From IMG/VR virus record IMGVR_UViG_2870469529_000003, positions 1 to 42,569 of that record: 42,569 bases of DNA; one strand, 5' to 3'. This stretch comes from a virus. Taxonomy: Duplodnaviria; Heunggongvirae; Uroviricota; Caudoviricetes. The position numbers and the translations under genes are program-made. Numbering within the stretch: position 1 is the first letter of the stretch; every line of letters begins with the position of its first letter. Below, piece after piece: positions 1 through 40,880 of the stretch. The notes beneath the pieces were generated by a model. That model made no database searches. It was not told the origin of the DNA and worked only from the letters and a program-made list of their open reading frames with translations.

Positions 1-1158
1 ATGCTCACCGTTAAGCAGATTGAAGCAGCAAAGCCGAAAGAAAAACCATACCGCCTTCTCGATGGTAATGGACTGTACCTTTATGTCCCTGTATCCGGGA
101 AAAAGGTATGGCAGCTTCGCTACAAGATTGACGGCAAGGAGAAAATCCTGACCGTAGGAAAATATCCGCTAATGACTTTGCAGGAGGCAAGAGATAAAGC
201 ATGGACCGCGAGGAAAGACATCTCGGTTGGCATCGATCCGGTAAAAGCGAAAAAGGCTTCGTCTAACAACAATTCCTTTAGTGCGATTTACAAGGAATGG
301 TACGAGCACAAGAAGCAAGTCTGGTCAGTAGGCTATGCAACTGAACTTGCAAAAATGTTTGATGACGACATTTTACCTATCATCGGCGGCCTTGAGATTC
401 AGGATATTGAGCCGATGCAACTGCTGGAAGTAATCCGCAGATTTGAAGATCGCGGCGCAATGGAGCGAGCCAACAAAGCACGCAGAAGATGCGGCGAGGT
501 TTTCCGTTACGCTATTGTCACTGGTAGGGCTAAATATAACCCGGCACCTGACCTTGCTGACGCCATGAAGGGATACCGCAAGAAGAACTTCCCGTTTCTT
601 CCTGCAGACCAGATCCCGGCATTCAACAAAGCACTGGCAACATTTTCAGGAAGTATCGTATCGCTCATTGCGACCAAAGTTTTACGCTACACAGCCCTAA
701 GAACGAAAGAGCTTCGTTCCATGCTATGGAAGAACGTCGATTTTGAAAACAGGATTATCACCATCGACGCCAGTGTGATGAAGGGACGCAAAATTCATGT
801 GGTCCCGATGTCAGACCAGGTGGTTGAACTTCTCACTACGCTAAGCTCCATCACCAAACCAGTATCAGAGTTTGTTTTTGCCGGACGCAACGATAAGAAG
901 AAGCCAATCTGCGAGAACGCGGTGCTACTTGTGATCAAACAAATCGGCTATGAGGGTCTGGAAAGCGGTCACGGATTCAGGCATGAATTCAGCACGATTA
1001 TGAACGAGCACGAATGGCCTGCTGACGCTATTGAAGTGCAACTGGCACATGCCAATGGCGGATCTGTGCGCGGGATTTACAACCATGCTCAGTATCTCGA
1101 TAAGCGCAGAGAAATGATGCAGTGGTGGGCGGACTGGCTTGATGAAAAGGTGGAGTGA
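1..1158 (+). CDS. intS: Tyrosine integrase, P4/IntS family (385 aa)
   Basis: N-terminal MLTVKQIEAAKPKEKPYRLLDGNGLYLYV (DUF4102-type arm-binding domain) and C-terminal catalytic domain (HGFRHEF...AHANGGSVRGIY); matches my recollection of K-12 IntS. Confidence 0.9.
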   Translation: MLTVKQIEAAKPKEKPYRLLDGNGLYLYVPVSGKKVWQLRYKIDGKEKILTVGKYPLMTLQEARDKAWTARKDISVGIDPVKAKKASSNNNSFSAIYKEWYEHKKQVWSVGYATELAKMFDDDILPIIGGLEIQDIEPMQLLEVIRRFEDRGAMERANKARRRCGEVFRYAIVTGRAKYNPAPDLADAMKGYRKKNFPFLPADQIPAFNKALATFSGSIVSLIATKVLRYTALRTKELRSMLWKNVDFENRIITIDASVMKGRKIHVVPMSDQVVELLTTLSSITKPVSEFVFAGRNDKKKPICENAVLLVIKQIGYEGLESGHGFRHEFSTIMNEHEWPADAIEVQLAHANGGSVRGIYNHAQYLDKRREMMQWWADWLDEKVE

Positions 1159-1299
1159 TCCACCTTAACCACTATCGAAGAGCACAAAGCCTTGCAATCC
1201 AGTACAAAACTTTGTTTGTCTCATCAACTACCGCAAGTATCGATCGATTGAGACTTGGATGATAGACTTCATGCCTTTGATTATTAGCTGATAGAAGAA

Positions 1300-1662
1300 A
1301 TGTTAAAGCTATTTGCAAAGTACACCTCTATTGGTGTGCTGAACACCCTTATACACTGGGTGGTTTTTGGTGTTTGTATCTATGTCGCGCATACAAACCA
1401 AGCTCTTGCAAACTTCGCAGGTTTCGTTGTGGCTGTGAGCTTTAGCTTCTTCGCGAATGCAAAATTCACATTCAAGGCATCGACTACAACGATGCGCTAC
1501 ATGCTATATGTTGGGTTCATGGGGACACTGAGTGTTACTGTTGGATGGGCTGCTGATAGATGCGCACTTCCCCCGATGATAACTCTTGTCACCTTCTCCG
1601 CCATCAGCCTGGTGTGCGGTTTCGTCTATTCAAAGTTCATTGTCTTTAGGGATGCGAAATGA
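1300..1662 (+). CDS. gtrA: GtrA-family bactoprenol-linked glucose translocase (flippase), 120 aa
   Basis: Small 4-TM hydrophobic protein immediately upstream of a GT2 glycosyltransferase; resembles K-12 YfdG. Confidence 0.85.
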
Positions 1663-2588
1663 AGATATCTCTTGTAGTTCCTGTCTTCAATGAAGAAGAA
1701 GCGATACCAATTTTTTATAAAACGGTACGTGAATTCGAAGAATTGAAGTCATATGAAGTGGAAATTGTTTTCATAAATGACGGCAGCAAAGACGCTACAG
1801 AGTCAATAATTAATGCTCTGGCTGTTTCAGATCCTCTAGTTGTTCCGCTGTCATTTACACGAAACTTTGGTAAAGAACCAGCATTGTTTGCAGGGTTAGA
1901 CCATGCAACAGGTGATGCCGTTATTCCTATTGATGTTGACCTGCAAGACCCGATTGAGGTCATTCCTCATCTGATTGAAAAGTGGCTAGCAGGTGCTGAC
2001 ATGGTGCTTGCTAAACGATCTGACCGCTCAACGGATGGCAGACTGAAGCGAAAAACGGCTGAGTGGTTCTATAAGCTCCACAATAAAATAAGCAATCCGC
2101 AGATAGAGGAAAATGTTGGAGATTTCAGGCTGATGTCTCGCGAGGTAGTGGAGAATATTAAGATCCTGCCAGAACGCAATCTTTTCATGAAAGGTATTCT
2201 TAGTTGGGTTGGTGGGGATACAGATGTTGTTGAGTATGTCCGCGCTGAGCGTGTAGCTGGCAGCACGAAATTCAATGGGTGGAAATTATGGAATCTGGCG
2301 ATAGAAGGAATAACCAGTTTCTCAACCTTCCCCTTGCGAATCTGGACGTATATCGGCTTAGCGGTAGCTGGATGCGCATTTTTGTATGGTTCATGGATGA
2401 TATTCAACACATTGGCATTTGGTAACGCAGTTCGCGGATATCCTTCACTACTTGTTTCAATCCTGTTTCTTGGTGGGGTACAGCTTATCGGGATAGGTGT
2501 TCTCGGGGAGTACATTGGAAGAATATACATTGAATCTAAAGCAAGACCAAAATATTTATTGAAAGGAAATAATAAAAATGAGAGCTAA
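1659..2588 (+). CDS. gtrB: GtrB-family bactoprenol glucosyltransferase (GT2), 309 aa
   Basis: N-terminal GT2 fold (VVPVFNEEE...INDGSKD...DVDLQDP) plus two C-terminal TM helices; start overlaps gtrA stop by 4 nt. Confidence 0.9.
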
Positions 2589-4389
2589 AACTATATATTT
2601 ATTAATATTTGCTTTTGTTATATCAACATATTTAAGTGGACGATTTCCATATAACATAGTAACTAACTCTGACTCAATATACGCCTATTCATTATTTAAA
2701 TCTATATTAACCGGAAATTCAAGTATTTTTGATTGGTACCCATCACCATCACCTTATGTATTCCCTGATCTATTGTTGTACTTTTTTTCTTTCTTGATAG
2801 GTTTTGGCGATGTGTTTTACGTACCTCTGGTTTATATTGTGTTGCAAATGTCATTGTTTTATATAAGCATAATATACATGCTGCGTAACTTATTCAATGA
2901 TAAAAATCACAGTGAATTATCATTATTGATTCTTTTGTCTTCAATTTTTATGGCATATTATTATGAGACTTACTCTATAATGCTAACGCCATTATTTCAC
3001 TTCGGTGTTTTAATTGCGTGCTTTTTTTCAATTGGATTATTATATGGAAGGGAAAACAAATCGCCAACAAAATACTTTGCACTATATGTTTTATCGTTTA
3101 TAAGCTCTTATTCTGATAACATGTATGTGATCTGGTTTTCTTTACCATCAACTGGAATAGCGATTACTTTATTAATCTTAAAAAATGATAAAAAGTATTT
3201 ACTGCCATCTTTTCTTTGCCTTGCAGCATCTCTATTAGGTATGCTCTCAACAAGGTATTTATTTATTAACTCAAGCATGTATGGCTATTCATTTAACGAG
3301 TCTGTCATCACAAATAACTTAATTGATGCATTCAATATTTTTTCATATTCATGGTATGGTTGCTTATTGCTAATATCTTTATTTATAATTGCTATTTACT
3401 CAGCTAAGTGCACAATAGAAAAAAACTATGGTGTGAAGTTTATAATTTCACTTTATTACATATATTCTTTTTTATCTACTTTAATCATCTTATCATTCCA
3501 AGATTCACTACCGCAGGCCGATAGGTACTACTCAATATCATTCTTTATGATGTTTCCTATGATATTTTATGTGTTTTTGTCTTTTGTAAAGATAAAACAT
3601 ATAACTTACGTATGCGCATTTTTCATTATTTTGGTTTTTTTATCTCTTCCTCATGTTAGCTTTATAGGTGCTGATCAGCAATGTTTGATACAAAACATTA
3701 AGTCAACCAATATCCGCAATGGAGTTTCTGGTTATTGGGATTCGAAAAGGCTAATGGCATACGATGATACATTATCAATATCACAAGTTGACCAAAATAT
3801 GAATGCATACAGATGGATAACATCTGAGACGCAATATCACAATGACGCTTATTTTGCGATATTAAATAACAATGACAGCCAGTCTATTAGGTATGATGCA
3901 TTAATAAATTTAAACGGCAATCCTTCACATGTAGGGCAATGTGGTGATTATAAAGTTTTGTTTTATAATAAACCAATAATAATAAACTCACTAAAAAATG
4001 TAGGTGATACATCAATTTTTAGTGGCGCACTCCTTAACTACGCTAATTACAAAAAGGATGGTAATATAATCTATCCTGCGGATGATTTTTCTGGAGGTAA
4101 CTTTAGCTTTGGTCCATTTGCAAAAGCTTACGAAGGAGATTATGAATATGTAGTAACAATTAAAAACAATAAAATGGAAGATGTAAATGGTTATATTGAT
4201 GTGGCAAATAAAAGTGGGAAAAACATTATCGACATAAATAACTTCAACTCAAACAGTTCTGTTATAAAGGTTAGCGGGAAATTCTCAATAAATTCCGATG
4301 ATAACAACACCAACCTAGAGATAAGGACGTTTCTTAGACATAGATATGATATCAGCATTGATAATATATACATAAAAAAAACAAAATAA
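2578..4389 (+). CDS. Serotype-specific O-antigen glucosyltransferase (GtrC-type), 603 aa: polytopic membrane domain plus ~200-aa hydrophilic N/D/S-rich C-terminal domain
   Basis: Third gene of the gtr operon, overlaps gtrB by 11 nt; many predicted TM helices; visibly AT-rich compared with neighbours. Confidence 0.6.
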
Positions 4390-4394
4390 CATCA

Positions 4395-4453: not shown

Positions 4454-6382
4454 TTAACTTGTAAAAACATTAACTAGCGTTATCTTTCCGCCTGGACGTT
4501 TATATATATAGCTATATCTATCATTATCCGGGGAAATTATTGTCTGACTGCTGTATTCTATGGCTAACATCGGTGTATTAATAGTGTACTCATTGTCTGC
4601 ATAAATGGCATATGAATCACTTTGTTCTGCCTTAAATACACAAGCAGCACCGATAGTACATCTGGTACTTGGTGATAATGTTCTGATAGCTGCTTTGTTT
4701 TCAGTGCCAGAATCAGAGTTTGTACCCCAGTTATTAAACTCAACTGCATCTATGGTCAATGAGCATTCATCACCCAATACTATTGGATTATTATTTACGC
4801 CTCTAATACTGCCAGCAGAAAATGACATAGATGTAGAATTAGTTGCATTAAGGAAGTTATAGGTACGTCGACTGGGTGTGCTGTATTCTCCCATGCCAAG
4901 TGCATCAAAAGAAGACATAACAAAACCATTAACTTTATCAGCCCTTATAGCTGTCATGTTAGTATTCAATGCGGTTGATGCGTGAACAAAATGAGCGTTA
5001 GATATTTGCACAGATTCTACTTTACGTACTGAGTTTCCGTACAGTGCTAAAATCGGGATAGATACTCCTGAAGTATTAGTTGTCTCACCAATATAAATAT
5101 TACTAAGCGCGGTATTTATATGATTTGTTGAAGTATCTTGTGGCTCTAAAGCTATAGCTCCAATATCATATCCTCCATTGCAAAATATATTGCTAGCTCG
5201 ATTGCCACCGGCTGATAACCTTAATGGGCAGCTTCCTCCGTACACTTCCACAGTGTCTAGAACAGAGTCGCTGTACACACGTATGCCACCTCCCGTTGCA
5301 CGGATTGAGATATCTGATGCATCGGTAGCTTCGCAATAAATATCTCGAAATCTTGCAAGTCCTTGACCGTCATAGATAAACCATGTATTGAATCTCTTGC
5401 CAGTTAACTTCTCGTAATACCACCCAGCACCGCGAGTATGCAGTATGGCGTGATTGCACCTCCACTCCCCGTCGAACTGGATGTTTTTGAACTTAATGCT
5501 GTCCTGGCCATCATTAGACTCACCGGAACTAAAGATAAAGTTCTGATTATCATTTAGTGGTTTTATTACGGTAGTGCCAGTATATGCCTGATTAGCGCCC
5601 TGACCTAAAAATGTCAGGCCTTGGGTATGTCCGGGTATAGTGCAGGGTGACATTCTAAGCTCTCCTTTTGGGAGAATAATGTGTCGCACGCCAGCATCTA
5701 TAGCTCTCAGTATTGCTGGGGTTTGGTCAGCAATATGAACTCCACCACCATAGTTTTCAATGTGATCTGAAACAGGTTCTTTTTTCCAGTTGGTATCTAC
5801 TGTCGGTGTAGTGGGAACCATTGAACCTGGTGTGATTTCCCCCTTGTATGAGTAGTATTCATTATTAAATTTGAATGCCTGTAGCGCAGAGTGCAATGGT
5901 GAATTGCTACCAAAATATCCAGATGGAATAAATGGATGCAAATCATATTGCTGTAATTCAAATAGTTTTATTGCATTATCAAGCGTAGAATCTTCATATC
6001 CAACAAGTGAGGCCCCTTCAGGACCAGATAACTCTTTCCTTAGCTGATCAGGATCATACTTCAGCACATTAGGAAAATAGAACTGCTGTGCACCATACGC
6101 ATCATAAACAGCCATAGAATGGCCTTGCACGGTAACGAATTTGGCAATCTGTCCGTTATATACCGGATAACCAGCAGCGTTAATGATGATTGGTTGAGAA
6201 ACAGGAACGTGAGAGCCGTCTTCGTTCTCCACATAAACCTGAATCTGGTTTTCTGGATTTACCGGATCAGTGTCAATTTTACCGATATAAATTTTACCAT
6301 TGGCTACGGCTTTAAAAGAACGCGCCATAGTGAAGAGTTGCGATGGCATTGATACGATCACATTGGCTGTAATGTCTGTCAT
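4454..6382 (-). CDS. Tailspike protein (P22 gp9-like N-terminal head-binding domain, divergent receptor-binding domain)
   Basis: N-terminus [11 protein letters not shown]...[14 protein letters not shown]...LKYDPDQ matches the P22 tailspike head-binding domain; the remainder is a different beta-helix-type domain. Confidence 0.85.
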
Positions 6383-6517: not shown

Positions 6518-6769
6518 ATGGGAAGAGATGACCCGCAATTTAATCTGCGGCTACCTTACGAATTAAAGGAAAAACTAAAACAGCGAGCCAAATCCAATGG
6601 CCGCTCTCTTAATTCAGAATTAGTTCAGATAGTGACTGATGCTGTATCAAAGCCATCCAAAATTTCAGGCTATCGAGACGATGCGGAACGCATCGCTGAT
6701 GAGCAGTCTGAACTTGTTAAGAAGATGGTGTTTGATACGCTGAAGGATTTGTACAAAAAACCCACCTGA
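6518..6769 (+). CDS. mnt: Mnt-like ribbon-helix-helix repressor (83 aa)
   Basis: MGRDDPQFNLRLPYELKEKLKQRAKSNGRSLNSELVQIV... is an Arc/Mnt-type RHH; same length and C-terminal tail (DAERIADEQSELVKKMVFDTLKDLYKK) as I recall for P22 Mnt. Confidence 0.8.
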   Translation: MGRDDPQFNLRLPYELKEKLKQRAKSNGRSLNSELVQIVTDAVSKPSKISGYRDDAERIADEQSELVKKMVFDTLKDLYKKPT

Positions 6770-6780
6770 CGGTGGGTTTC
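6750..6780. terminator. Bidirectional terminator hairpin between convergent mnt and the 322-aa gene
   Basis: AAAAAACCCACC-TGAC-GGTGGGTTTCAT: stem flanked by an A-run on one side and T-run on the other. Confidence 0.55.
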
Positions 6781-6784
6781 ATAA

Positions 6785-7753
6785 TTAGATTTCTGGTTTC
6801 ATTCTTCCGAAAACCTTTTCTATTCCTTTTTCGTATTCTTCTCTTGTCTCACTCATCGCTGCGACACCAAGAAGCTTACCGATATGCTGACGCAAAGCCT
6901 TGACACCAATTTCAGAAAGGAACAGATGCAACTTATCAGATTGTTTTCCGTTCTCGTCTCGGCTGGCTCTAATTTGTTCAAGGATTTTACCTTTACTCTT
7001 TGCTAGCGGGGTGTATATCTGCATGTTGGTTAGCTGCCCAAAACGAATAGGCCGTCCTTTCTCTGGCCTATTCAGGCCGTACAGTCGATACCACTCCTCG
7101 TATAGCTCATCTGGAAATTCCTTTTCATATTGACGAGCCTCTTCACGAACAAACGCTTTGAACTCGTCAATGACAGCCTGAACTTCTGGACGATAACCAG
7201 CAAGCGCATACGCAACCCCCTTAATTCCCGCCTTAGCGGAGGCATTAATAAGTCTCTGTGCTGCGGCGGCTGCCTTTAACCGTGATTGTGGTAGATCGTC
7301 ATTATCTTTGGCTTCTATTAGTGCCCTACCAATATCAACAATTGCTGTAATGTCATAACCTAACGCTTGATGAACGGTTTTAGACTTCGAAGTAAGTTGA
7401 AATTTATAGGGATTTTCCATTTTTCGCTGCAATTCTAGATCTCGGTATTTGCTCATATACTGAGCGCCAAGCAGTTGATCTAAATCCCTGGCATGTTCAC
7501 CAATCCCTAGCAACTGAGATAATCCAGTTTTCGTAACAACGACAGTTTTCGACTCGTCATCCAGTACATAACATTCAGCGTCAATGCCAAAATCATCTAA
7601 AAAGTTACCACGATGAGTTGCCCTGAGAATCTTACTTTTCCATCTTGCAGCAGCTGCTTTCTTTGCTATTTCAGAACGCTGCTCTTTAGTCAGCGACTTT
7701 GCGCGAGCGATCCCGCCCTTAGCTTTCCCTTCGCCACTTTTCTTTTCAGTCAT
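6785..7753 (-). CDS. Hypothetical protein (322 aa from MTEKKSG...), basic N-terminal segment, function unknown; occupies the immI/sieA cargo slot
   Basis: Long ORF; plausible start at 7753 preceded by AAAGG; N-terminus GGIARAKSLTKEQRSEIAKKAAAARW looks like a DNA-binding motif; own promoter upstream. Confidence 0.7.
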   Translation of the reverse strand: MTEKKSGEGKAKGGIARAKSLTKEQRSEIAKKAAAARWKSKILRATHRGNFLDDFGIDAECYVLDDESKTVVVTKTGLSQLLGIGEHARDLDQLLGAQYMSKYRDLELQRKMENPYKFQLTSKSKTVHQALGYDITAIVDIGRALIEAKDNDDLPQSRLKAAAAAQRLINASAKAGIKGVAYALAGYRPEVQAVIDEFKAFVREEARQYEKEFPDELYEEWYRLYGLNRPEKGRPIRFGQLTNMQIYTPLAKSKGKILEQIRASRDENGKQSDKLHLFLSEIGVKALRQHIGKLLGVAAMSETREEYEKGIEKVFGRMKPEI

Positions 7754-7754
7754 A

Positions 7755-7844
7755 ATGCAAGCACCTTTGTTGTGATGTATGCTTGCATTATATGCACTGT
7801 ACACACATACAAGCAAGCATAAAACTAAAACAAAATGCTTGCAT
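7755..7844 (-). promoter_or_regulatory. Promoter (-35 TTGCTT, 18-nt spacer, -10 TATAAT) bracketed by two inverted-repeat pairs of the 9-10-bp motif ATGCAAGCA / ATGCTTGCAT
   Basis: Motif copies at ~7755-7763, 7779-7788, 7812-7820 and 7835-7844 in alternating orientation; perfect TATAAT on the minus strand at ~7787-7792. Confidence 0.5.
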
Positions 7845-33521: not shown

Positions 33522-33553
33522 CAGCCTCACAACTCTAAAACACACAACAATAA

Positions 33554-33585
33554 CCCGACCTTAGCGTCGGGTTTTCTTTTTCCAA
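33554..33585 (+). terminator. Rho-independent terminator downstream of cI
   Basis: CCCGACCTTAGCGTCGGG stem followed by TTTTCTTTTT. Confidence 0.7.
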
Positions 33586-33646
33586 AACATAAACCCATTA
33601 AATACAAAGCGTTATAAAAAACCAATCATATTTAGAACATTTTGTA

Positions 33647-33675
33647 TTGACTCGATAAAGTACAAATCGTACTAT
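33647..33675 (+). promoter_or_regulatory. pL-like promoter (-35 TTGACT, 17-nt spacer, -10 TACTAT) with overlapping operator palindrome AGTACAAATCGTACT
   Basis: Perfect 5-5-5 inverted repeat at ~33659-33673 overlapping the spacer and -10. Confidence 0.6.
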
Positions 33676-33713
33676 TTAGCCATCAGCAGGACGCACTAAC
33701 CACCATGAAGGTG

Positions 33714-33745
33714 ATGCTCTTAAAAATTAAGCCCTGAAGAAGGGC
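33714..33745 (+). promoter_or_regulatory. nutL (boxA-like TGCTCTTAA plus boxB GCCCTGAAGAAGGGC)
   Basis: boxB is identical to lambda nutL boxB; sits between pL and N. Confidence 0.75.
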
Positions 33746-33943
33746 GGCTTTCAAAGCAGAAGGCTTTGGGATTGGATGAATGAGCAGGCTGATGCTCGAC
33801 CAATGTATAAACAGCGCTCATGGCAAGCAGTAACCAATCTGCGCCTCAAGACAGCGTCACTGGTAGTGCGGGCGCTCTAACCAGTAAGCCGGGGTTCAGC
33901 GCCGGCCATCCAATCACCAAAGCTAACTGACAGGAGAATCCAG

Positions 33944-34276
33944 ATGGATGCACAAACACGCCGCCGCGAACGTCGCGCAGAGAAACAGGCTCAATGGAAA
34001 GCAGCAAATCCCCTGTTGGTTGGGGTAAGCGCAAAACCAGTTAACCGCCCTATTCTCTCGCTGAATCGCAAACCGAAATCACGAGTAGAAAGCGCACTGA
34101 ATCCGATAGACCTTACGGTGCTGGCTGAATACCACGAACAGATTGAAAGCAACCTGCAACGTATTGAGCGCAAGAATCAGCGCACATGGTACAGCAAGCC
34201 ACGCAGTGAAATGGGTGTGACCTGTTCAGGCCGCCAGAAGCAACGCGGAAAATCAATTCCAGCCTATTACGATTGA
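33944..34276 (+). CDS. N: Antiterminator N, lambda-type, 110 aa
   Basis: MDAQTRRRERRAEKQAQWKAANPLLVGVSAKPVNRPILSLNRKPKSRVESALNPIDLTVLAEYH... appears near-identical to lambda N including the Arg-rich motif. Confidence 0.9.
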   Translation: MDAQTRRRERRAEKQAQWKAANPLLVGVSAKPVNRPILSLNRKPKSRVESALNPIDLTVLAEYHEQIESNLQRIERKNQRTWYSKPRSEMGVTCSGRQKQRGKSIPAYYD

Positions 34277-34545
34277 GGTGGTCATGCTCAAGAAAATCAA
34301 ACGCCGACTTTACAAAGAAGGTAGATATTCATGCCAATTGCCAAAATGCGACACAACAAAATGGAGTGTCGATGATTGGTGTAACTGGATAGATAGATAC
34401 GGAACTTGGTGGGATAAATAACAGGTAACTTAAGCGTATTTACTTTCGCGGCAAACCACATATTTGAGGTGAGATATGGAAGAAGAATTTGAAGAGTTCG
34501 AAGAGCATCCTCAGGATGTGATGGAACAATACCAGGACTATCCGT

Positions 34546-34746
34546 ATGACTACGACTATTGATACAAATCAATGGTGTGGACAATTCAAGCGATGCAATG
34601 GATGCAAGCTGCAATCGGAATGCATGGTTAAGCCTGAAGAAATGTTTCCTGTAATGGAAGATGGGAAATATGTCGATAAATGGGCAATACGAACGACGGC
34701 AATGATTGCCAGAGAACTTGGTAAACAGAATAACAAGGCTGCCTGA
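34546..34746 (+). CDS. ral: Ral-type restriction-alleviation protein, 66 aa
   Basis: MTTTIDTNQWCGQFKRCNGCKLQSECMVKPEEMFPVMEDGKYVDKWAIRTTAMIARELGKQNNKAA matches my recollection of lambda Ral. Confidence 0.75.
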   Translation: MTTTIDTNQWCGQFKRCNGCKLQSECMVKPEEMFPVMEDGKYVDKWAIRTTAMIARELGKQNNKAA

Positions 34747-34779
34747 TGGTGGCCTTTATTTTTGGCGTAAACAACAGAG

Positions 34780-35079
34780 GTGAATATGAATTATACACCC
34801 GGCCCATGGAAATGGTGGACAAGTAACAGCTTTCTGCGATTAAGCAGTCAAGCAACAGGTAAAGATGGTGGTGTCATCGACTCTTATGTCATGAAGGATG
34901 GTCACTCATCACTAATCGTTAGCAAAGAAGATATGAATCTGATAGCGGCAGCACCAGACCTTTTAAATGCCCTGCAAGCGATGCTAAACAAGGCATACAA
35001 GCAAAACTGGAATGACCATTATCCTGATGAAGTATCGAAAGCACAGTCAGCAATCAGCAAAGCTCTTGGGGAAGAATGA
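34780..35079 (+). CDS. Hypothetical early-left protein, 99 aa
   Basis: ORF in pL operon context; no recognisable motif. Confidence 0.5.
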   Translation: MNMNYTPGPWKWWTSNSFLRLSSQATGKDGGVIDSYVMKDGHSSLIVSKEDMNLIAAAPDLLNALQAMLNKAYKQNWNDHYPDEVSKAQSAISKALGEE

Positions 35080-35237
35080 TGAATAAGAAATACATCGTTG
35101 AAGTTATAGAGCGAGAAACGAAAGAAGTAATTAAACATTTCGAATTTGATAATTATAGAAAAGCTGACCGCGTAGAAGAGGGATTGTTGCGACAAAGTAA
35201 TCTCGAAAAATTTGATGTTGTCATGCGATGCGAATAA
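35076..35237 (+). CDS. Hypothetical small protein, 53 aa
   Basis: Not in the ORF track; start overlaps the upstream stop (ATGA); charged, helix-like. Confidence 0.3.
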   Translation: MMNKKYIVEVIERETKEVIKHFEFDNYRKADRVEEGLLRQSNLEKFDVVMRCE

Positions 35238-35420
35238 GCACCTATAGCAGATTTGCGAGTCTGCTATGTGGGCAATGTCGCTCGTAACTAAACAGGAGCC
35301 GACTTGTTCTGATTATTGGAAATCTTCTTTGCCCTCCAGTGTGAGGGCCTTTTTATATGCATACCAATAATGCTTCACGAGAGGCATTTTAGTTATGCAA
35401 TCAAATATAAGGAGTTACCC

Positions 35421-35555
35421 ATGATGCACTTTCAGCTCGCGGGTAGCGGCGTCATGTCCGCTTTCTACCCGCACGAATCTGAATTATCACGCCGAGTTAA
35501 ACAATTAATCAGAGCAGCAAAGAAACAACTGGAGGCGTTATGCGCAATGAAATAG
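35421..35555 (+). CDS. CIII-like protein (putative FtsH inhibitor), 44 aa
   Basis: AGGAG RBS; MMHFQLAGSGVMSAFYPHESELSRRVKQLIRAAKKQL resembles the lambda CIII core. Confidence 0.5.
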   Translation: MMHFQLAGSGVMSAFYPHESELSRRVKQLIRAAKKQLEALCAMK

Positions 35556-35692
35556 CCATCAATCACCAGATGCTTCGTGCTGCACAGAACAAAGCAGTAA
35601 TAGCCAGGTTTATTGGTGATTCAAAAATGTGGCTTGAAGCAAATAAAGCGATGAAATCAGCTATCAACCTTCCGTGGTATCGCAGGAAATGA
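35540..35692 (+). CDS. Kil-like protein (putative FtsZ inhibitor), 50 aa
   Basis: GGAGG RBS; ...KAVIARFIGDSKMWLEANKAMKSAI resembles lambda Kil; follows the cIII-like gene as in lambda. Confidence 0.45.
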   Translation: MRNEIAINHQMLRAAQNKAVIARFIGDSKMWLEANKAMKSAINLPWYRRK

Positions 35693-35946
35693 GTTTTACA
35701 GATAACTGGTCAGACGGAGAATTCATTCGTCAGATGAAAGAATTAATCGGTAACGAAGGAGATATTCATGTCACTTGCAACCACAGTGAAGGAGAGCAAG
35801 TTACAGAGACGCATGTACACGCAGAAAGCTCTCTGGTATCGCCATAATGGTGACCGCGAAGGAATGCGGGTATGCCTTAATTTGTCCCGAGTCGAAGTAT
35901 TAAATCAGCGTTATTTCCTTGGGCCGTGTCCATTCTGAGGTGAATT

Positions 35947-36654
35947 ATGGATTTGAATAAATTCGATGAGCCATTCAGCCCTGAAGATATCGAATGGCGA
36001 ATACAGCAAAGCGGTAAAACACGCGATGGAAAAGTGTGGGCTATGGTGCTGGCTTATGTCACGAACCGGGCAATCATGAAACGCCTGGACGATGTTTGCG
36101 GCAAAGCAGGATGGCGCAATGAATACCGCGATATTCCCAACAACGGCGGAGTTGAATGCGGCATATCAATCAAGATTGATTCCGAATGGGTAACCAAATG
36201 GGATGCTGCTGAAAACACGCAGGTAGAAGCCGTCAAAGGTGGTCGTTCAGGTGCAATGAAGCGTGCTGCCGTTCAGTGGGGAATCGGTCGGTATCTGTAT
36301 AACCTTGAGGAAGGTTTCGCACAAACATCTCTCGATAAAAAGCATGGGTGGCACAGGGCAAAACTGAAGGATGGAACAGGATTTTACTGGCTCCCTCCAT
36401 CGCTGCCGGGATGGGCAATCCCAGCATCAGATAACAAACCATCACCAGAAAATACCAACCAGAAATCTCCATCGGTTGACTGCGAACAAATCCTGAAAGA
36501 CTTCAGCGATTATGCATCAACAGAAACTGACAAGAAAAAACTCATCGAGCGTTATCAGCGTGACTGGCAATTAATGGCTGGCAACGAGGAGGCGCAGGCT
36601 AAATGCGTTCAGGTAATGAACATCAGAGTTAACGAACTAAAACAGGCGGCATAA
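35947..36654 (+). CDS. Single-strand annealing protein: Rad52-like N-terminal domain with P22 Erf-like C-terminal tail, 235 aa
   Basis: N-terminal ...KGGRSGAMKRAAVQWGIGRYLYN (Rad52-type); C-terminal ...YASTETDKKKLIERYQRDWQLMAGNEEAQAKCVQVMNIRVNELKQAA matches my recollection of the P22 Erf C-terminus. Confidence 0.7.
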   Translation: MDLNKFDEPFSPEDIEWRIQQSGKTRDGKVWAMVLAYVTNRAIMKRLDDVCGKAGWRNEYRDIPNNGGVECGISIKIDSEWVTKWDAAENTQVEAVKGGRSGAMKRAAVQWGIGRYLYNLEEGFAQTSLDKKHGWHRAKLKDGTGFYWLPPSLPGWAIPASDNKPSPENTNQKSPSVDCEQILKDFSDYASTETDKKKLIERYQRDWQLMAGNEEAQAKCVQVMNIRVNELKQAA

Positions 36655-37122
36655 ATGTCTCACTTGGACGGAATTATTAAAAGATTCGAGTCCAGCTACA
36701 AAGTTAATGAAACAACAGGTTGCTGGGAGTCTACCTATTCAAAAAACAAAGGAGGATACACAAAATTTGTAGCCTTTGGCGTAACAATGCTTTCTCATCG
36801 GGTTGCTTTTGAGCTTTATCACTCCCCCATTCCATCTGGGAAGATGGTTTGCCACAAATGCGATAACCCATGCTGCGTTAATCCTGAACATCTCTTTTTA
36901 GGTAGCGCGCAAGAAAACATGGACGACAAGATAGCAAAAGGAAGGCATCGTGGAGCCAAGAAAGGTCATGCTCATCATGGTGCAAAATTAACAGAGTGGC
37001 AGGTTATAGAAATTAGGAAAAGACTCTCTGAAAAAGAGAGTCAGTACAAGATAGCAAAAGACATGGGTGTATCTCAATCAATTATAAGCAACATAAAAAC
37101 TGGCAAGAGGTGGAGCAAATGA
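36655..37122 (+). CDS. HNH endonuclease, 155 aa
   Basis: HNH core ([25 protein letters not shown]) plus a C-terminal basic helix-turn-helix-like segment. Confidence 0.8.
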
Positions 37123-37625
37123 GTTCTCGCGGGATAAATAAGGTGATTATCCTTGGTCGGGTAGGACAAGACCCGGAAGTTCGATACTCACCATCAGGAA
37201 CAGCGTTCGCTAACCTGACAATAGCCACGTCAGAACAATGGCGAGATAAAAATACTGGCGAGCAAAAGGAATTGACTGAATGGCATCGTGTTGCTGTATC
37301 CGGGAAACTGGCTGAGGTCGTGGGGCAGTATGTGAAAAAAGGTGATCAGATTTATTTCGAGGGAATGCTGAGAACCAGAAAGTGGAAAGACCAGTCAGGG
37401 CAAGACCGTTACACAACCGAGGTTCATGTCGGAATTAATGGCGTGATGCAAATGCTTGGCGGCATTGGCGACAGCAAACAACAAGCAGCCAGCAGGCAAT
37501 CACAGAAGCCACAGCAGCAATCATCACCAGCACAACACAACGAACCTCCGATGGATTTTGACGACGATATACCCTTTGCACCAGTAACTCTCCCCTTCCC
37601 TCGTCACGCTATTCACGCAATTTAA
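37119..37625 (+). CDS. ssb: Single-stranded DNA-binding protein (start placed at MSSRGINK...)
   Basis: [23 protein letters not shown]...EWHRVAV...; Gln-rich linker; acidic C-terminal tip MDFDDDIPF. Confidence 0.9.
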
Positions 37626-37638
37626 TCAGGAGAAAATC

Positions 37639-37932
37639 ATGCCAGCGCCTCTGTATGGTGCGGATGACGCGCGCCGCTGTTCCGGCAATTCCGTATCGGA
37701 GGTGCTGGATAAATTCAGAAAAAACTACGATCGGATAATGTCGCTACCGCAGGAAACGAAAGAGGAAAAGGAATTTCGCCACTGTATATGGCTTGCAGAG
37801 AAAGAAGAACGAGAGCGAATTTACCAGACATCAATCCGACCATTCCGCAAAGCCACATATACCCACTTCCCTGAAATTGACCCGCGCCTGCGTAATTACC
37901 GCTCACGCTATGGCGCTATCAGTAATGACTGA
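37639..37932 (+). CDS. Hypothetical protein, 97 aa
   Basis: ORF in early-left operon context. Confidence 0.45.
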   Translation: MPAPLYGADDARRCSGNSVSEVLDKFRKNYDRIMSLPQETKEEKEFRHCIWLAEKEERERIYQTSIRPFRKATYTHFPEIDPRLRNYRSRYGAISND

Positions 37933-37942
37933 GGAATTAACA

Positions 37943-38233
37943 ATGAAAACAATGAAGCTAAACATCGACCTCGGAAAATACGTTATTACCGGAACCAAAC
38001 ACGATCTGATTCTTAGCGAAAGAGGAATTATCAAAGAAGGTGAGAATGCAGGGAAAGAAACACTAAGCCGTATCGGTTATTACAGCAAGTTTGAGCATCT
38101 GGTCAAAGAGTTATGCAACCGTGAAATCCTGTTATCTCAGGCGCAGACGCTACAGGATATTCAGCAGCATATCGAGACTTTAGGTGTATCACTTAGCATG
38201 GCTGTTGACCAGTTCGTGGAGAGTAAGTCATGA
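37943..38233 (+). CDS. Hypothetical protein, 96 aa
   Basis: GAGGA RBS before ATG at 37943. Confidence 0.5.
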
Positions 38234-38390
38234 GAGGACTTGCATACAATCCCGGCATTCTTCCGGCAGAAATGATTATTCGCCAACGCGTAAAGCCAAT
38301 GCCATCGAGAGATGAATTGCTTAAGAGAAAGAGTTTCGGTTCTGTTAATGACAACAAATATCTGAATGCGATGTGGCGGAGTGGGAAGAA

Positions 38391-38840
38391 ATGAAACAAA
38401 TGTCACTAATTGAGATGGATGGATTTCTGAAAGGTAAATGCATCCCACGAGATTTAAAGGTTAACGAAACAAACGCTGAATACCTTGTCCGTAAGTTCGG
38501 TGAACTTGAATCAAAACTGGAAACGGCGTTGCGGGAGTGTCGTTCTGCTGGAATCACGATTGATAACCTTGAGGCTAAATGCGCGAAGATGGCTGCTGAA
38601 AATACCTCACTTAAGCAATCTGAGAAGGAATTTAATGACTTTTGTCGTGAGGAGTTTAGCGAATGGGAAGATGATGTTACTGAAACCCCAGCCACCGACG
38701 CATTCCTGGCTGAAGTACGGGCGCAGGGAGTGGAGATGGCTATGGAGCATATGCAGTCGAGCGGTTCGTTAACATTTGGAGATTGCTACATATCACTTAA
38801 CGAGTTCGCCGCCCAGCTTCGTAAAGGAGGCAACCAGTGA
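38391..38840 (+). CDS. Hypothetical protein, 149 aa
   Basis: ORF in operon context; stop overlaps the next start (GTGA). Confidence 0.5.
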
Positions 38841-39280
38841 GCGAAATTAATTATCAGGCACTGCGTGAAGCGGCAGAAAAAGCAACGTGTGGTGTGTGGT
38901 CGCTCGAATATGGAGAGGAGAGATTTGATGCTGGTGATGCGCTAATTCATCGTGAAGTTGTTGGATATCTTCCCATTTGCAGAATTGAAGGAGCGCATCC
39001 TGAAAGCGGTTTCGATGAAGGTTTCCAAATGGAACAGCAGGCCAATGCTGAATTCATCGCCGCAGCCAATCCGGCTACCGTGCTAACACTGCTGAACGAG
39101 CTGGAAACAGCAAAAAAGCGCATAGCAGAACTGGAGGAGCGGGAAATACTGCTCCCGGAACGTAGCAGCATGCTTCATCGAACAGATTTTCACGATGATT
39201 ACCAAACGGTAATGGCATACAAAGTTTCTGAAGTCATCGATGCAATCCGCGCTACTGGCATTCGCATCAAAGGAGAGTGA
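38837..39280 (+). CDS. Ead/Ea22-like early protein, 147 aa
   Basis: ...ANAEFIAAANPATVLTLLNELE...AELEERE... is the typical Ead/Ea22 family motif. Confidence 0.65.
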   Translation: MSEINYQALREAAEKATCGVWSLEYGEERFDAGDALIHREVVGYLPICRIEGAHPESGFDEGFQMEQQANAEFIAAANPATVLTLLNELETAKKRIAELEEREILLPERSSMLHRTDFHDDYQTVMAYKVSEVIDAIRATGIRIKGE

Positions 39281-39475
39281 GATGAACGGACAGATATCAA
39301 TTGTTCGACCAGGAGCATGTGACGATCGCGAAATACGAATGATTATTCGTCTGGCGATGGTGAAAACAATAACAGCTCTCATTACTCCAGAAAATCTCGC
39401 ATTAGCTTTAACCGGAAAGTCAGACCTGCCAGTGGAGCTAAAGCTGCGAAATGTTGAGATTAAGGTGAAATAGCT

Positions 39476-40156
39476 ATGACCACTATTACCAAAGAACGTA
39501 TCGAATTGTTCATTAAAAATCCGCTTGATAACGGACTTACTCGTGGCGAACAAATGGAACTGGCACGAATTGCACTGGCCTCGCTTGAGGCAGAGCTAGT
39601 TGGTGCATTCCACATTGCTGAACAGCAAGTTGACGGCACAAGTGACTATCTCAAGGATGGAGAATGGCCTATTGATAATGGGATTATTGAAGTCTACGCC
39701 GCCCCGCCAGCGCCGGTAGTGCCTGATGAAATGACAGAACACGGCGCAAGACGGGCAACAGGTTTTAACCGTTATATCGTAGCAGGGTACGTAGAAGGCT
39801 GGAACGCCTGCCGTGCAGCCATGCTTCAGAGTCAATCCGAACAACCACAAAACGCCCAACAAAATATTCCTGAAAATATTCCTGGTGGCAACTCTCCGGT
39901 AATTCCGGAGGGTTGGATAAACTGTAGTGAGCGAATGCCTGTAATTGGCGAGCTAAATTGGAGAACTAGTTTTCCTTTGCTGGTTACGTGTGAGATCGGC
40001 GTTATACCTGCTTATTACGGCTTTGTGAGCGTTAATGGTGATAGGCATTATGGCTTTATGGAGAGTCTTAAATACGGAGACGATAGCGGCGGCCATCCTC
40101 AAACTAATGAATATGGTCTGATTAGCAATGTAACCCACTGGATGCCGCTGCCATAA
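39476..40156 (+). CDS. Hypothetical protein with DUF551-like C-terminal motif (VTHWMPLP), 226 aa
   Basis: C-terminal motif shared with the ORF at 22569-22787. Confidence 0.55.
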   Translation: MTTITKERIELFIKNPLDNGLTRGEQMELARIALASLEAELVGAFHIAEQQVDGTSDYLKDGEWPIDNGIIEVYAAPPAPVVPDEMTEHGARRATGFNRYIVAGYVEGWNACRAAMLQSQSEQPQNAQQNIPENIPGGNSPVIPEGWINCSERMPVIGELNWRTSFPLLVTCEIGVIPAYYGFVSVNGDRHYGFMESLKYGDDSGGHPQTNEYGLISNVTHWMPLP

Positions 40157-40517
40157 CCGCCGAGCAGGATGGTGAATAATGCCGCCAGTTAAAGTTGTGA
40201 TTATCACTTTGGTGATGATAGTGATTGCGAGAATCATGTCTGGTGAAGTTTGGTGGATATGGTAATGGCTAAGGCAGCAGCAGAGCGCAACTAACAATCC
40301 TAGCACTCGCGGGGATTTCTTTTATCTGAACTCGCTACGGCGAGTTTTGTTTTATGGAGATGATAAATGCACTTCCGAGTCACAGGTGAATGGAATGGAG
40401 AGCCATTCAACAGAGTTATCGAAGCAGAGAACATCAACGACTGCTATGACCACTGGATGATATGGGCGCAGATAGCACATGCAGACGTAACCAATATTCG
40501 AATTGAAGAACTGAAAG

Positions 40518-40545
40518 AACACCAAGCCGCCTGATGGCGGTTTTT
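40518..40545 (+). terminator. Rho-independent terminator upstream of the excisionase gene
   Basis: CCGCC-TGAT-GGCGG followed by TTTTTTATT. Confidence 0.6.
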
Positions 40546-40591
40546 TATTACCTGATTTGCAGGTTCGATTCCCTATTCGGAGATAGCACTC

Positions 40592-40792
40592 ATGCAACAC
40601 GAACTACAGCCTGATTCCCTGGTTGATTTGAAATTCATCATGGCCGATACTGGCTTCGGTAAAACCTTCATCTATGACCGGATTAAGTCCGGAGACCTGC
40701 CTAAAGCCAAAGTTATCCACGGGCGAGCAAGATGGTTATATCGTGACCATTGTGAATTCAAAAATAAGCTCTTAAGCCGCGCCAATGGGTAA
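40592..40792 (+). CDS. torI: Excisionase / recombination directionality factor, TorI (AlpA/Xis) family, 66 aa
   Basis: MQHELQPDSLVDLKFIMADTGFGKTFIYDRIKSGDLPKAKVIHGRARWLYRDHCEFKNKLLSRANG matches my recollection of K-12 TorI; winged-helix excisionase fold. Confidence 0.85.
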   Translation: MQHELQPDSLVDLKFIMADTGFGKTFIYDRIKSGDLPKAKVIHGRARWLYRDHCEFKNKLLSRANG

Positions 40793-40865
40793 AATAGCGG
40801 GTAAAATATTTCTCACATCCAAAAAACACCATTCCAATCAACCCCCTGCCGCGTCAAGTAGATGT

Positions 40866-40880
40866 CTGCAGGGGACACCA
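40866..40880 (+). other. attR core: 15-bp match to the 3' end of tRNA-Arg (argW type)
   Basis: CTGCAGGGGACACCA matches the acceptor-stem/CCA end of tRNA-Arg(CCU) as I recall it; about 75 bp downstream of torI. Confidence 0.6.

Follow-up and report, generated by a model that had tools for sequence, protein, structure and literature searches.

The 3′ end of argW, the tRNA-Arg(CCU) gene of E. coli, harbors KplE1 (CPS-53) in strain K-12. This prophage is a 10.2-kb remnant that lacks repressor, virion and lysis genes. Its recombination module at argW, with the integrase IntS beside attL and the excisionase TorI beside attR, was described by Panis et al. (PMC2951348, PMC3509656). Publications on KplE1, HK620, Sf6, CUS-3 and Kapi1 (PMC2951348, PMC3509656, PMC8787464) state this module and this arrangement for all of them. 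An attP between xis and int was thus described years ago, and the layout discussed below is known and not new in kind.

HK620, IME10, Bas106 (CurroJimenez), APC_JM3.2, Kapi1 and the Shigella phage Sf6 are P22-like phages with this argW/IntS/TorI module. Phages of the HK620/IME10/Bas106/Sf6 type share their gene order, torI-attP-intS, P22-type virion genes and lambdoid early and late control. In P22 itself int and xis are adjacent on one side of attP and gtrA lies on the other, which places int and xis at the same prophage end. P22 integrates at thrW, and its integrase has no similarity to IntS. Satellite P4 (11.6 kb) integrates at leuX; its integrase belongs to the IntS family, its attP core directly precedes int, its arm repeats overlap the int start and its excisionase gene is far from int.

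We analyzed a stretch of 42,569 nucleotides (the window) against these systems. The window very probably contains all but a small part of a temperate lambdoid prophage of 41.0 kb, which is P22-like (short-tailed, headful-packaging) and inserted in the 3′ end of argW by way of the KplE1/HK620/Sf6-type module.

Extent and Insertion Site

The initial annotation had the prophage run from 1 to 40880. Its right end is exact: alignment with attP of HK620, Bas106 and IME10 and with attR of K-12 puts the phage/host junction at 40880/40881. Its left end is about 175 nt short. The window begins at the ATG of intS, so that attL and about 175 nt (P′ arm and intS promoter) fall outside, which is also why ARAGORN detects no tRNA in the window. 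For the left end we used a public contig (L039) that is 100% identical to positions 1-20347. This contig contains argW (tRNA-Arg(CCT)) and a second exact copy of the core 176-162 nt upstream of the intS ATG, and thereby confirms two predictions, a tRNA-Arg upstream of intS and a direct core repeat at the left end. argW also precedes intS in three further relatives with the same gtrC. With the left end added the element measures 41,041 bp, close to the genomes of isolated relatives (38.3-41.7 kb). The remainder of the window is bacterial:

40881-42569: host chromosome, right flank, 97-99% nucleotide matches to E. coli chromosomes
41322-42569, minus strand: cscB, sucrose/oligosaccharide MFS permease, annotated as oligosaccharide MFS transporter/cscB beside torI in the E. 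coli matches

The right-hand neighbor is cscB, in place of dsdC in K-12.

Recombination Module

1-1158, plus strand: intS, P4-type tyrosine integrase of 385 aa, first prophage gene, transcribed away from argW/attL
40592-40792, plus strand: torI, recombination directionality factor (excisionase) of 66 aa, last prophage gene
40787-40880, plus strand: attR, with direct repeats, inverted repeat and core

As initially proposed, intS and torI stand at opposite ends of the element. Both proteins are 100% identical to their K-12 counterparts, and TorI is also identical to HK620 HkaC and to the IME10 and Bas106 homologues. The function of TorI was established experimentally with the identical K-12 protein (PMC3509656). 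IntS contains the domains Arm-DNA-bind_3 (PF13356), Phage_int_M (PF22022) and Phage_integrase (PF00589), as does P4 Int, with which it shares 35% identity over its full length (402 aligned positions). The core and arm sequences of P4 differ from those found here, and its gene content is unrelated.

The predicted 15-bp core beyond torI is present: the argW 3′ end CTGCAGGGGACACCA occurs as a single exact copy in the window (40866-40880, plus strand), and the chance expectation for this 15-mer is 0.11 even with two mismatches permitted. In K-12 the core measures 16 nt because the next host base is T; here the next base is G and the core ends at 15 nt. The sequence is nearly identical to attP of HK620, Bas106 and IME10 and to K-12 attR from a point upstream of torI to the end of the core, and it diverges completely from 40881. 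The attR has two copies of the direct repeat GGGTAAAA (at 40787 and 40799) and the inverted repeat CCCCTGC/GCAGGGG (40843/40868). The minimal functional attR of K-12 begins at a primer site, CTCTTAAGCCGCGCCAATGG, that has a homologous counterpart here (PMC3509656). The attL in L039 carries all five TorI pentamer sites, together with arm-type repeats and the -35/-10 elements of PintS; it shares the pentamers, the repeats and PintS with the attL of KplE1.

That attP lies between xis and int in related free phages is borne out by the attP alignment and by the GenBank record of HK620, where the attP core is annotated between hkaC (TorI) and int. Since the circular phage order is torI-attP-intS, integration puts the two genes at opposite ends.

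The occupants of the argW hot spot vary greatly (thousands of matches with partial coverage), and the sequence is strongly mosaic. Both observations would also fit two elements, adjacent or in tandem, in place of a single phage, with the intS-gtr end and the torI end derived from different argW integrations, such that the 40.9 kb would not be one excisable unit. We consider this highly improbable: there is only one integrase, no functional module occurs twice, the element contains no third core in its interior, both arms match one attP, the genes from torI round to intS follow the order seen in the single free phages HK620, IME10 and Bas106, and the length fits one P22-like genome.

The initial description as a full-length relative of KplE1 applies to the two ends only. 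K-12 CPS-53 aligns at 1-2554 (intS-gtrA-gtrB, 92% nucleotide identity) and at 40542-40880 (torI-attR, 97%), and nothing aligns between these segments. No nucleotide similarity to the element is detectable in the KplE1 interior (tfaS, yfdK-yfdT), and at the protein level only one short segment matches.

Serotype Conversion, Tailspike and immI Position

1300-1662, plus strand: gtrA, 99% identical to K-12 YfdG and 78% to P22 GtrA
1659-2588, plus strand: gtrB, 92% identical to K-12 YfdH and 87% to P22 GtrB
2578-4389, plus strand: gtrC, low GC (about 30%)
4454-6382, minus strand: gene 9, tailspike
6518-6769, plus strand: mnt, 76% identical to P22 Mnt
6785-7753/7816, minus strand: P63C-domain ORF (PF10546, phrog_2384)
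7835-8098, plus strand: 87-aa ORF with two predicted TM segments (phrog_21338)

An O-antigen-modifying moron between tailspike and int is common to this element and to phages of the HK620/IME10/Bas106 type, which carry oac or polymerase-type morons. Here the moron is an O-antigen glucosylation (serotype conversion) cassette, gtrABC (1300-4389), as found beside the tailspike in P22. The identical gtrA/gtrB-region genes of L039 match PF04138 and PF00535. GtrC, with at least nine predicted hydrophobic segments and a predicted C-terminal domain, has neither a Pfam match nor a tblastn match among 50,697 phage records. The same gtrABC-tailspike cassette also occurs in prophages adjoining ybhB/bioA, with no integrase beside gtrA (a P22-like layout).

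The tailspike fuses a P22-type head-binding domain to a receptor-binding domain of other origin. Residues 1-113 correspond to PF09008, and the N-terminus is 74-90% identical to P22, HK620 and IME10; residues 114-641 share 68% identity with tailspikes from Salmonella phages of 155-163 kb, among them SJ3 and SenASZ3. In the immI-position region (6518-8098), where the gene calls are supported by the annotation of L039, mnt is kept although arc and ant are absent.

Virion, Lysis and Late Control

The P22-type morphogenesis operon (8116-22149, minus strand) comprises 12 genes, from 16 to terS (3):

8116-10347, minus strand: gene 16
10344-11747, minus strand: gene 20
11757-12449, minus strand: gene 7
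12452-12907, minus strand: gene 14
12907-13608, minus strand: gene 26
13608-15026, minus strand: gene 10
15027-15527, minus strand: gene 4
15792-17087, minus strand: gene 5, coat
17087-17998, minus strand: gene 8, scaffold
18012-20177, minus strand: gene 1, portal
20178-21677, minus strand: gene 2, terL
21655-22149, minus strand: gene 3, terS
22804-22866, minus strand: int-alpA RNA motif (RF02996), between lysis and terminase genes
23224-23691, minus strand: Rz, 91% identical to HK620
23265-23471, minus strand: embedded, intact Rz1 lipoprotein, with signal peptide and lipobox (...VAGC) in the translation
23688-24164, minus strand: R endolysin
24148-24471, minus strand: S holin
24905-25528, minus strand: Q late-gene antiterminator, 100% amino acid identity to lambda Q
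25525-29353, minus strand: nin region (ninH, rusA, HNH gene, roi-like antirepressor, ninF, ninX-like, ninE, ninD, ninB and small ORFs)
27915-28505, minus strand: MT-A70 DNA methyltransferase within the nin region (PF05063, phrog_359)

All P22 virion genes (3, 2, 1, 8, 5, 4, 10, 26, 14, 7, 20, 16, 9) are present at full length, in the P22 order and with a headful-type terminase (TerL 93% amino acid identity to P22). The morphogenesis proteins give full-length matches with 96-100% amino acid identity to IME10/Bas106 and 59-93% to P22, and the identical virion genes in L039 match P22-specific Pfam families. At the nucleotide level the virion half is 96% identical to IME10/Bas106 over 11 kb (11211-22522 for IME10), whereas identity to the P22 virion genes reaches only 73-77%. 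Gp16 (743 aa), distal gp20 and the receptor part of the tailspike differ from those of HK620/IME10/Bas106-type phages and have no close counterpart in six reference phages; their putative functions follow from length, position and Pfam family.

Within the lysis cassette (23224-24471), the S and R proteins share 99% identity with their lambda counterparts and 99-100% with those of HK620. A region of 96% nucleotide identity to lambda (24805-25538) covers the segment just downstream of Q, where lambda has PR′. The nin-region genes give tblastn matches to HK620, P22 and lambda, the roi-like gene matches PF03374, and P22 likewise has ninB-ninH genes, mnt and abc2. The RF02996 motif scores 42 bits (gathering score, 35.8) and was not found in HK620, IME10 or P22.

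Replication, Immunity and the Early-Left Operon

29638-31089, minus strand: DnaB-like helicase "P", 99% amino acid identity to IME10 and 98% to HK620
31064-31954, minus strand: O-like initiator, 99% amino acid identity to IME10
32137-32418, minus strand: cII
about 32526/32509, minus strand: nutR boxA/boxB
32535-32750, minus strand: cro
about 32777-32855: PR/OR, predicted promoter-like site
about 32868-33521, plus strand: cI, HTH_3 and Peptidase_S24 domains
33552-33573: predicted terminator
about 33600-33675: OL/PL, predicted promoter-like site
33731-33745: nutL boxB
33944-40534, plus strand: PL (early-left) operon, also with cIII-like, kil and ea-type ORFs
33944-34276, plus strand: N, 93% identical to lambda and 98% to Bas106
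34546-34746, plus strand: ral, 98% identical to lambda
35947-36654, plus strand: erf, 99% identical to IME10
36655-37122, plus strand: HNH endonuclease (HNH_3 domain)
37110-37625, plus strand: ssb
37639-37932, plus strand: abc2 (93-98%)
40367-40534, plus strand: lambda orf55 homologue upstream of xis, 100% identical to lambda
40524-40543, plus strand: intrinsic terminator directly 5′ of torI, 8-bp stem followed by a T-run

Replication genes occupy 29638-31954 and the immunity region 32137-33943. The C-terminal 135 or so residues of CI are about 98% identical to lambda CI, including the Ala-Gly cleavage site and the Ser/Lys motifs. The N-terminal HTH differs from that of lambda, and nucleotide identity to lambda within cI is confined to 33111-33515. 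OL and OR share operators of the AGTACnnnnnGTAYT type, and both boxB sequences are identical to those of lambda nutL and nutR. The virion, int/xis, O/P and CI N-terminal sequences of lambda are absent, and the morphology genes are of the podovirus (P22) type. We can therefore uphold the initial reading of a three-way mosaic, with P22-like virion and terminase, lambda-like Q, S, R, N, Ral and CI C-terminus, and an integrase related to that of P4. Compared with HK620/IME10/Bas106-type phages the allele combination differs: the element has its own CI HTH/operator specificity, the lambda CI C-domain, and lambda Q and N.

The argW T-arm recurs just 5′ of torI as a conserved copy, GGTTCGATTCC, which includes the published TorI recognition pentamer GTTCG. 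The region (40557-40580) contains two elements, and GGTTCGATT is invariant upstream of torI homologues across several genera.

40557-40572, plus strand: T-arm-like element TTGCAGGTTCGATTCC, exact 16-nt identity to argW
40575-40579, plus strand: second (A/G)T(T/C)CG pentamer, abutting the torI Shine-Dalgarno sequence

Intactness

Unlike KplE1, the element has complete virion, lysis (S/R/Rz/Rz1), replication (O/P) and immunity and control (cI, cro, cII, N, Q) modules, as initially claimed. We found no IS element, truncation or frameshift in it, a comparison that reveals truncating lesions and lets missense ones escape. The essential P22-type genes align end to end with counterparts in viable IME10, Bas106, HK620, P22 and lambda, in agreement with the earlier expectation of no inactivating lesion.

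The exact mosaic is absent from 5,426 complete E. coli genomes, where the best coverage of either half is 71%; phage records cover at best 59% and 51% of the two halves, and a search of the viral contig collection did not recover this allele's exact attP junction. Free circulation of this mosaic is therefore without independent support. These results would fit a complete-looking but cryptic prophage, excisable through IntS/TorI like the 10-kb KplE1 remnant yet producing no infectious particles owing to missense lesions, loss of immI control or a mosaic junction whose parts are incompatible (lambda Q/PR′ acting on a foreign late-operon leader, for instance, or the novel gp16, gp20 and tailspike parts). 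The divergence of gp16, part of gp20 and the distal tailspike domain, and an mnt kept without arc and ant, point the same way. However, the mnt-without-ant layout is also that of the isolated phage IME10, and several assemblies of independent origin carry the same gp16, gtrC and tailspike alleles, which speaks for recent mobility. Given also the uninterrupted essential genes and a length near that of isolated relatives, we regard a cryptic prophage as unlikely and favor an apparently complete temperate phage.

Proposed Life Cycle

Both inducibility and virion production would be expected from the gene content and the known biology of these families. In the lysogen, CI, with its novel HTH and lambda-type autocleavage domain, would keep PL and PR shut; the O-antigen would meanwhile be glucosylated by gtrABC, and intS would be held at an idling level by autorepression of its own promoter in attL. 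SOS-induced cleavage of CI would derepress PL, and lambda-type N acting at nutL would allow readthrough of terminators, including that at 40524-40543, so that transcription extends to torI at the operon's distal end. TorI, IntS and IHF would then excise the genome, O and P would replicate the DNA, and lambda Q would switch on the late operon. P22-type terminase, portal, coat and tail proteins would form particles whose tailspike may aim at an O-antigen, and S, R, Rz and Rz1 would lyse the cell.

Results and Discussion

Ends of the element

The window consists of DNA from the chromosome of E. coli. The 1.7 kb at its right end are 97-99% identical to E. coli chromosomes, with the cscB locus beside torI, and its left end matches the intS-yfdG-yfdH region that is present in about half of complete E. 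coli genomes. The genes fall into blocks with the shape expected of a lambdoid prophage opened at an attP that separates the integrase gene from the end of the PL operon:

1-4389, rightward: short gene block
4454-32750, leftward: long gene block
32868-40792, rightward: third gene block
40881-42569: host flank right of attR, the csc (sucrose) locus; cscB, an oligosaccharide/sucrose MFS permease gene, adjoins the torI end, and K-12 has dsdC at this place

The initial annotation described an apparently intact prophage at argW that is bracketed by intS and torI. This observation is confirmed. The first prophage gene, intS (1-1158, +), lies downstream of argW in the same orientation and encodes a 385-residue protein with 100% amino acid identity to K-12 IntS. 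The last, torI (40592-40792, +), adjoins attR and encodes 66 residues that are 100% identical to K-12 TorI and, by tblastn, to the excision factors (RDFs) of phages HK620, IME10 and Bas106. Its stop codon lies 73 nt ahead of the expected tRNA-Arg core, the argW 3' 15-mer CTGCAGGGGACACCA, which occurs only once in the window (40866-40880). To place the right junction we aligned window positions 40532-41000 with the torI-to-int interval of HK620, Bas106 and IME10 and with attR of K-12. The window is near-identical to all four sequences from upstream of torI through the core and splits from all of them at 40881; therefore, the right prophage/host junction lies exactly at 40880/40881. Past the core, the three phages run on into the P' arm (TTTATCAGTTCGC...) and K-12 runs into its own host flank. 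The base after the core is G here, and the att identity comprises 15 nt versus 16 nt in K-12. The junctions expected after excision are as follows:

attP of the circular form: ...GTCAAGTAGATGT-CTGCAGGGGACACCA-TTTATCAGTTCGC...
empty attB: argW core, then GATACCCTTCAAACG

ARAGORN finds no tRNA gene in the window because the window begins at the intS start codon. We settled this point by way of contigs with the same gp16 allele as the window, among which L039 (GCA_053257835.1, JBNDCP010000014.1) matches window positions 1-20347 with zero mismatches and continues leftward of intS into argW, a tRNA-Arg(CCT) gene, and then into yfdC and mlaA. As predicted, argW stands upstream of intS, at a distance of 161 nt in this contig as well as in three more prophages with the same gtrC allele (L007, L010 and L012). 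A second exact copy of the core lies 176-162 nt upstream of the intS ATG in L039. Hence the argW 3' core (CTGCAGGGGACACCA[T]) is directly repeated at both prophage ends, the left copy being outside the window, and the spacing of the two copies defines an element of 41,041 bp. In the GenBank record of HK620, the attP core is placed between hkaC (TorI) and int, which bears out the proposal that attP sits between xis and int in the phage genome.

The mechanism of this type of recombination module is known. IntS and IHF integrate, whereas IntS, TorI and IHF excise, and the core is the argW 3' end (PMC2951348, PMC3509656). The known attL contains five TorI sites (8-mers with GTTCG, GTCCG or GATCG, pentamers defined in PMC2951348) and arm-type IntS sites, which overlap the intS promoter, with the result that both IntS and TorI repress intS and that production of TorI is enough to set off excision (PMC2951348, PMC3509656). 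Panis et al. described the KplE1 module as highly conserved in full-length CUS-3, HK620, Sf6 and prophages of APEC-O1 and UTI89, with int and RDF transcription uncoupled. Upstream of intS, L039 carries all five TorI pentamers, TTGACA and the GGGTAAAA/TTTTACCC repeats. The window attR is 97% identical to that of K-12 at the nucleotide level and holds two GGGTAAAA repeats and a CCCCTGC/GCAGGGG inverted repeat. IntS/TorI/IHF excision was demonstrated for identical proteins on K-12/HK620 substrates (PMC3509656), and by analogy we predict that the same three proteins would excise the present element.

A tRNA T-arm copy upstream of torI

Right behind a terminator and 19 nt short of the torI ATG, the 16-mer TTGCAGGTTCGATTCC (40557-40572) reproduces the argW T-arm exactly, from the 5' stem through the loop to the second base of the 3' stem. 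It extends a conserved part, GGTTCGATTCC, at 40562-40572. In argW this 16-mer directly adjoins the att core and shares one C with it. The phage therefore carries the final 30 nt of argW split in two, with 293 bp that include torI and the P arm in between. The same element is found in K-12, HK620, IME10 and Bas106. This copy may be a neutral relic derived from the tRNA gene, and it possibly descended from a longer tRNA identity block. In more distant relatives, GGTTCGATT stands unchanged about 30 nt ahead of torI homologues at 11 of the 18 loci examined (in Enterobacter, Serratia, Citrobacter, Pantoea, Edwardsiella and others), with flanking columns that diverge (mean column identity 63%), and it persists even before the gene of an RDF that has only 39% identity to TorI. 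An alternative function would be that of a core-type site for IntS. The element lies outside the 135-bp attR that is sufficient in vitro (PMC3509656).

Several other candidates were rejected. A scan of 40200-41320 for sigma-70 promoters returned two unrelated sites and no other, which eliminates the element as the torI promoter. The CII site annotated in HK620 (TTGC-N5-TTGC) is not conserved, since the first TTGC reads TTAC in both the window and K-12. A search for known RNA families at the element gave sub-threshold Rfam noise only, and a conserved T-arm-like hairpin was dismissed by eye because the flanks capable of pairing differ between lineages and share no common stem. Finally, the motif is not generally linked to other genes: 34 of 80 viral-contig matches to the motif followed by a Shine-Dalgarno sequence and ATG precede TorI homologues, and the remaining 46 look, by inspection, like 3' ends of real tRNA genes.

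The reading that we prefer, tentatively and with more doubt than confidence, is that the T-arm copy acts in cis, most likely as a TorI operator for autoregulation or as a roadblock. This suggestion is based on its position right after the terminator and on two pentamers: the published TorI pentamer GTTCG lies inside the element, and another, ATTCG of the form (A/G)T(T/C)CG, follows 12 nt downstream, abutting the Shine-Dalgarno sequence, and reads GTTCG or GTCCG in several relatives. If a TorI operator is indeed present, the excision factor would regulate its own production by feedback, and the T-loop DNA beside the core in attB and attL would be a natural TorI target.

Gene content

We ran 67 candidate ORFs in tblastn against the CPS-53 region of K-12 and the phages HK620, IME10, Bas106, P22 and lambda, and used blastn for nucleotide matches. 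All P22 virion genes are full length and in P22 order, 3-2-1-8-5-4-10-26-14-7-20-16-(immI)-9:

terS (3), terL (2), portal (1), scaffold (8), coat (5), 4, 10, 26, 14, 7, 20, 16 and tailspike (9)

The products of the genes from 7 to terS are 96-100% identical to those of the viable phages IME10 and Bas106, and nucleotide identity to IME10 over 11211-22522 is 96%. For genes 20, 16 and 9, the match is confined to the N-terminal parts. The identical genes of L039 carry the Pfam domains P22_portal, Phage-scaffold, P22_CoatProtein, P22_Tail-4, Phage_stabilise, P22_gp7, Inj_translocase, Phage_P22_gp16 and Head_binding. The lysis genes S, R and Rz are present, with an embedded Rz1 that has a lipoprotein signal; Q is 100% identical to lambda Q, and the replication genes share 99% identity with their IME10 counterparts. 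We saw no transposase, frameshift or truncation in the element. Thus, the virion, lysis, replication and immunity modules are all present at full length and uninterrupted, as the initial annotation had it, and judged by sequence the element is complete. With argW, the left core copy and the essential genes all checked, none of the three defects that this annotation named as grounds against itself (no tRNA-Arg upstream of intS, no direct repeat of the core, an inactivating lesion) was found. The remaining uncertainties on intactness are the divergence of gp16, of distal gp20 and of the tailspike receptor domain, and the retention of mnt with arc and ant missing. The isolated phage IME10 likewise has an mnt homologue directly beside its tailspike gene.

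Further genes and motifs of note are listed by position:

6518-8098, the immI position: mnt kept (76% to P22 Mnt), arc and ant absent; between gene 16 and mnt, a P63C-domain ORF of 322/343 residues (phrog_2384) and an 87-residue ORF with two TM segments
22804-22866 (-), between Rz and terS: Rfam int-alpA RNA motif (RF02996; 42 bits, above the gathering score), just upstream of a 72-residue ORF matching phrog_924 (unknown function); the motif is absent from HK620, IME10 and P22
27915-28505 (-), nin region: MT-A70-family DNA methyltransferase gene, not at that position in P22, HK620 or lambda
36655-37122 (+): HNH_3 endonuclease gene inserted between erf and ssb, with no equivalent there in P22, HK620 or lambda

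Immunity and regulation

A lambdoid control circuit is present, consisting of cI-PRM/OR-cro, cII, N with nut sites, and Q upstream of the lysis and late operon, with a terminator after cI and PL- and PR-like promoters. OL and OR both carry related 15-bp operators (AGTACnnnnnGTAYT), and the boxB sequences are identical to those of lambda nutL and nutR. The cI product has its own HTH domain, and its last approximately 135 residues are about 98% identical to lambda CI. This part belongs to Peptidase_S24 (PF00717) and contains the Ala-Gly cleavage site and the Ser/Lys dyad; the motifs VQAGMF, GNSMT and FKKL are identical to those of lambda CI. By domain and motifs, this repressor is of the SOS-inducible LexA/CI S24 type and is predicted to be cleaved. 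As a side observation, CI (32868-33521) is a hybrid that joins a non-lambda HTH with its own operators (~32779-32855 and ~33603-33673) to a lambda C-terminal domain, with the recombination junction at the linker, near residue 100.

Two intrinsic terminators stand ahead of torI (40328-40347 and 40524-40543). Behind them, torI would be the last gene of an N-antiterminated PL operon, so that TorI synthesis should await both CI cleavage and N action and excision would be coupled to induction. Q-dependent late transcription, headful packaging, O-antigen-directed adsorption and seroconversion by gtrABC would be expected by analogy with known families.

Putative seroconversion cassette and tailspike

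In the gtrABC cassette we identified the GtrA flippase and the GtrB bactoprenol glucosyltransferase. The third gene (2578-4389, +; ~30% GC) encodes a polytopic protein of 603 residues with at least nine hydrophobic segments, and its position and size fit GtrC. No Pfam family covers the protein, and a tblastn comparison with 50,697 phage records gave no hit. An assembly collection nevertheless indexes the identical sequence in 96 blocks, and the relatives among viral contigs amount to one match at 73%. Presumably this is a serotype-specific GtrC of uncharacterised specificity. In the tailspike (4454-6382, -), a P22-type head-binding domain is joined to residues 114-641, which share 68% identity with the tailspikes of SJ3, SenASZ3 and other large Salmonella phages (155-163 kb). 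This suggests an exchange of receptor-binding domains between very different phage types.

Identical gtrABC genes also occur in P22-like prophages at two sites, argW (L007, L010 and L012) and ybhB/bioA (L008, L009 and L011), and a 642-residue tailspike gene is called beside them in four of these six loci. At argW, intS adjoins gtrA, whereas no integrase stands beside gtrA at ybhB/bioA; the latter layout is that of P22, with int and xis together at the other end. The occurrence of gtrABC and tailspike at both sites implies that conversion and receptor genes move as a unit, independent of the integration module, and illustrates the ordinary module shuffling of the P22-like group.

Relationship to known phages

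The proposed three-way mosaic of P22-like virion, lambda-like control and P4-like integrase proved correct but conservative when segments were mapped by blastn and tblastn:

Closest relatives of window segments
P22: virion and terminase genes, 73-77% nucleotide identity
Lambda: S/R 95%, Q 96%, N 99% and ral 97% nucleotide identity; ninB/D/E also of lambda type
Lambda: C-terminal half of CI only (33111-33515), 94% nucleotide identity; orf55 homologue just upstream of torI, 97%
HK620/IME10 type: O, P and part of the nin region
P4: IntS 35% identical to P4 Int over its full length (402 aligned positions, E = 1e-77), with the PF13356 N-terminal arm-binding domain
K-12 CPS-53/KplE1: 1-2554 (intS, gtrA and most of gtrB; 92% nucleotide identity) and 40542-40880 (torI and attR; 97%) only

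The local layout in P4 is also the same: its attP core shortly precedes int, arm repeats overlap the start of int, and the excisionase gene is remote from int. The interior of CPS-53 has no blastn match to the window at the nucleotide level. Therefore, the description as a full-length relative of KplE1 holds for the recombination and gtr modules at the ends, and for these only. The interpretation is otherwise supported.

The virion half is 96% identical in nucleotides to IME10, which is classed as a Lederbergvirus, but no single phage record covers more than 48-59% of each half. We did not find the same prophage elsewhere: complete E. coli genomes cover at most 71% per half, phage records cover at most 59% and 51%, and viral contigs lack the exact attP junction of this allele. 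This mosaic has thus not been sighted independently as a free phage. A tandem or composite element was considered as a rival explanation for the arrangement and rejected. Integrase and excisionase at opposite ends, the argW site and P22/lambda mosaicism are textbook matter since HK620 (2001), Sf6 (2004), KplE1 (2007-2012) and Kapi1 (2022). The element is a new combination of alleles, an ordinary mosaic member of the argW P22-like phages whose biology is already known.

Conclusion

For general phage biology little is changed, as several publications already describe this arrangement. An inducible phage of the generalised-transducing type that also modifies O-antigen is probably present in the host strain. 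With IntS, TorI and att sites identical to those of K-12 and an intact CI/N circuit, the element would be a convenient natural system for work on the coupling of KplE1-type excision to induction, which is out of reach in the K-12 remnant. The conserved T-arm/GTTCG element ahead of torI offers a small, testable lead on RDF regulation.
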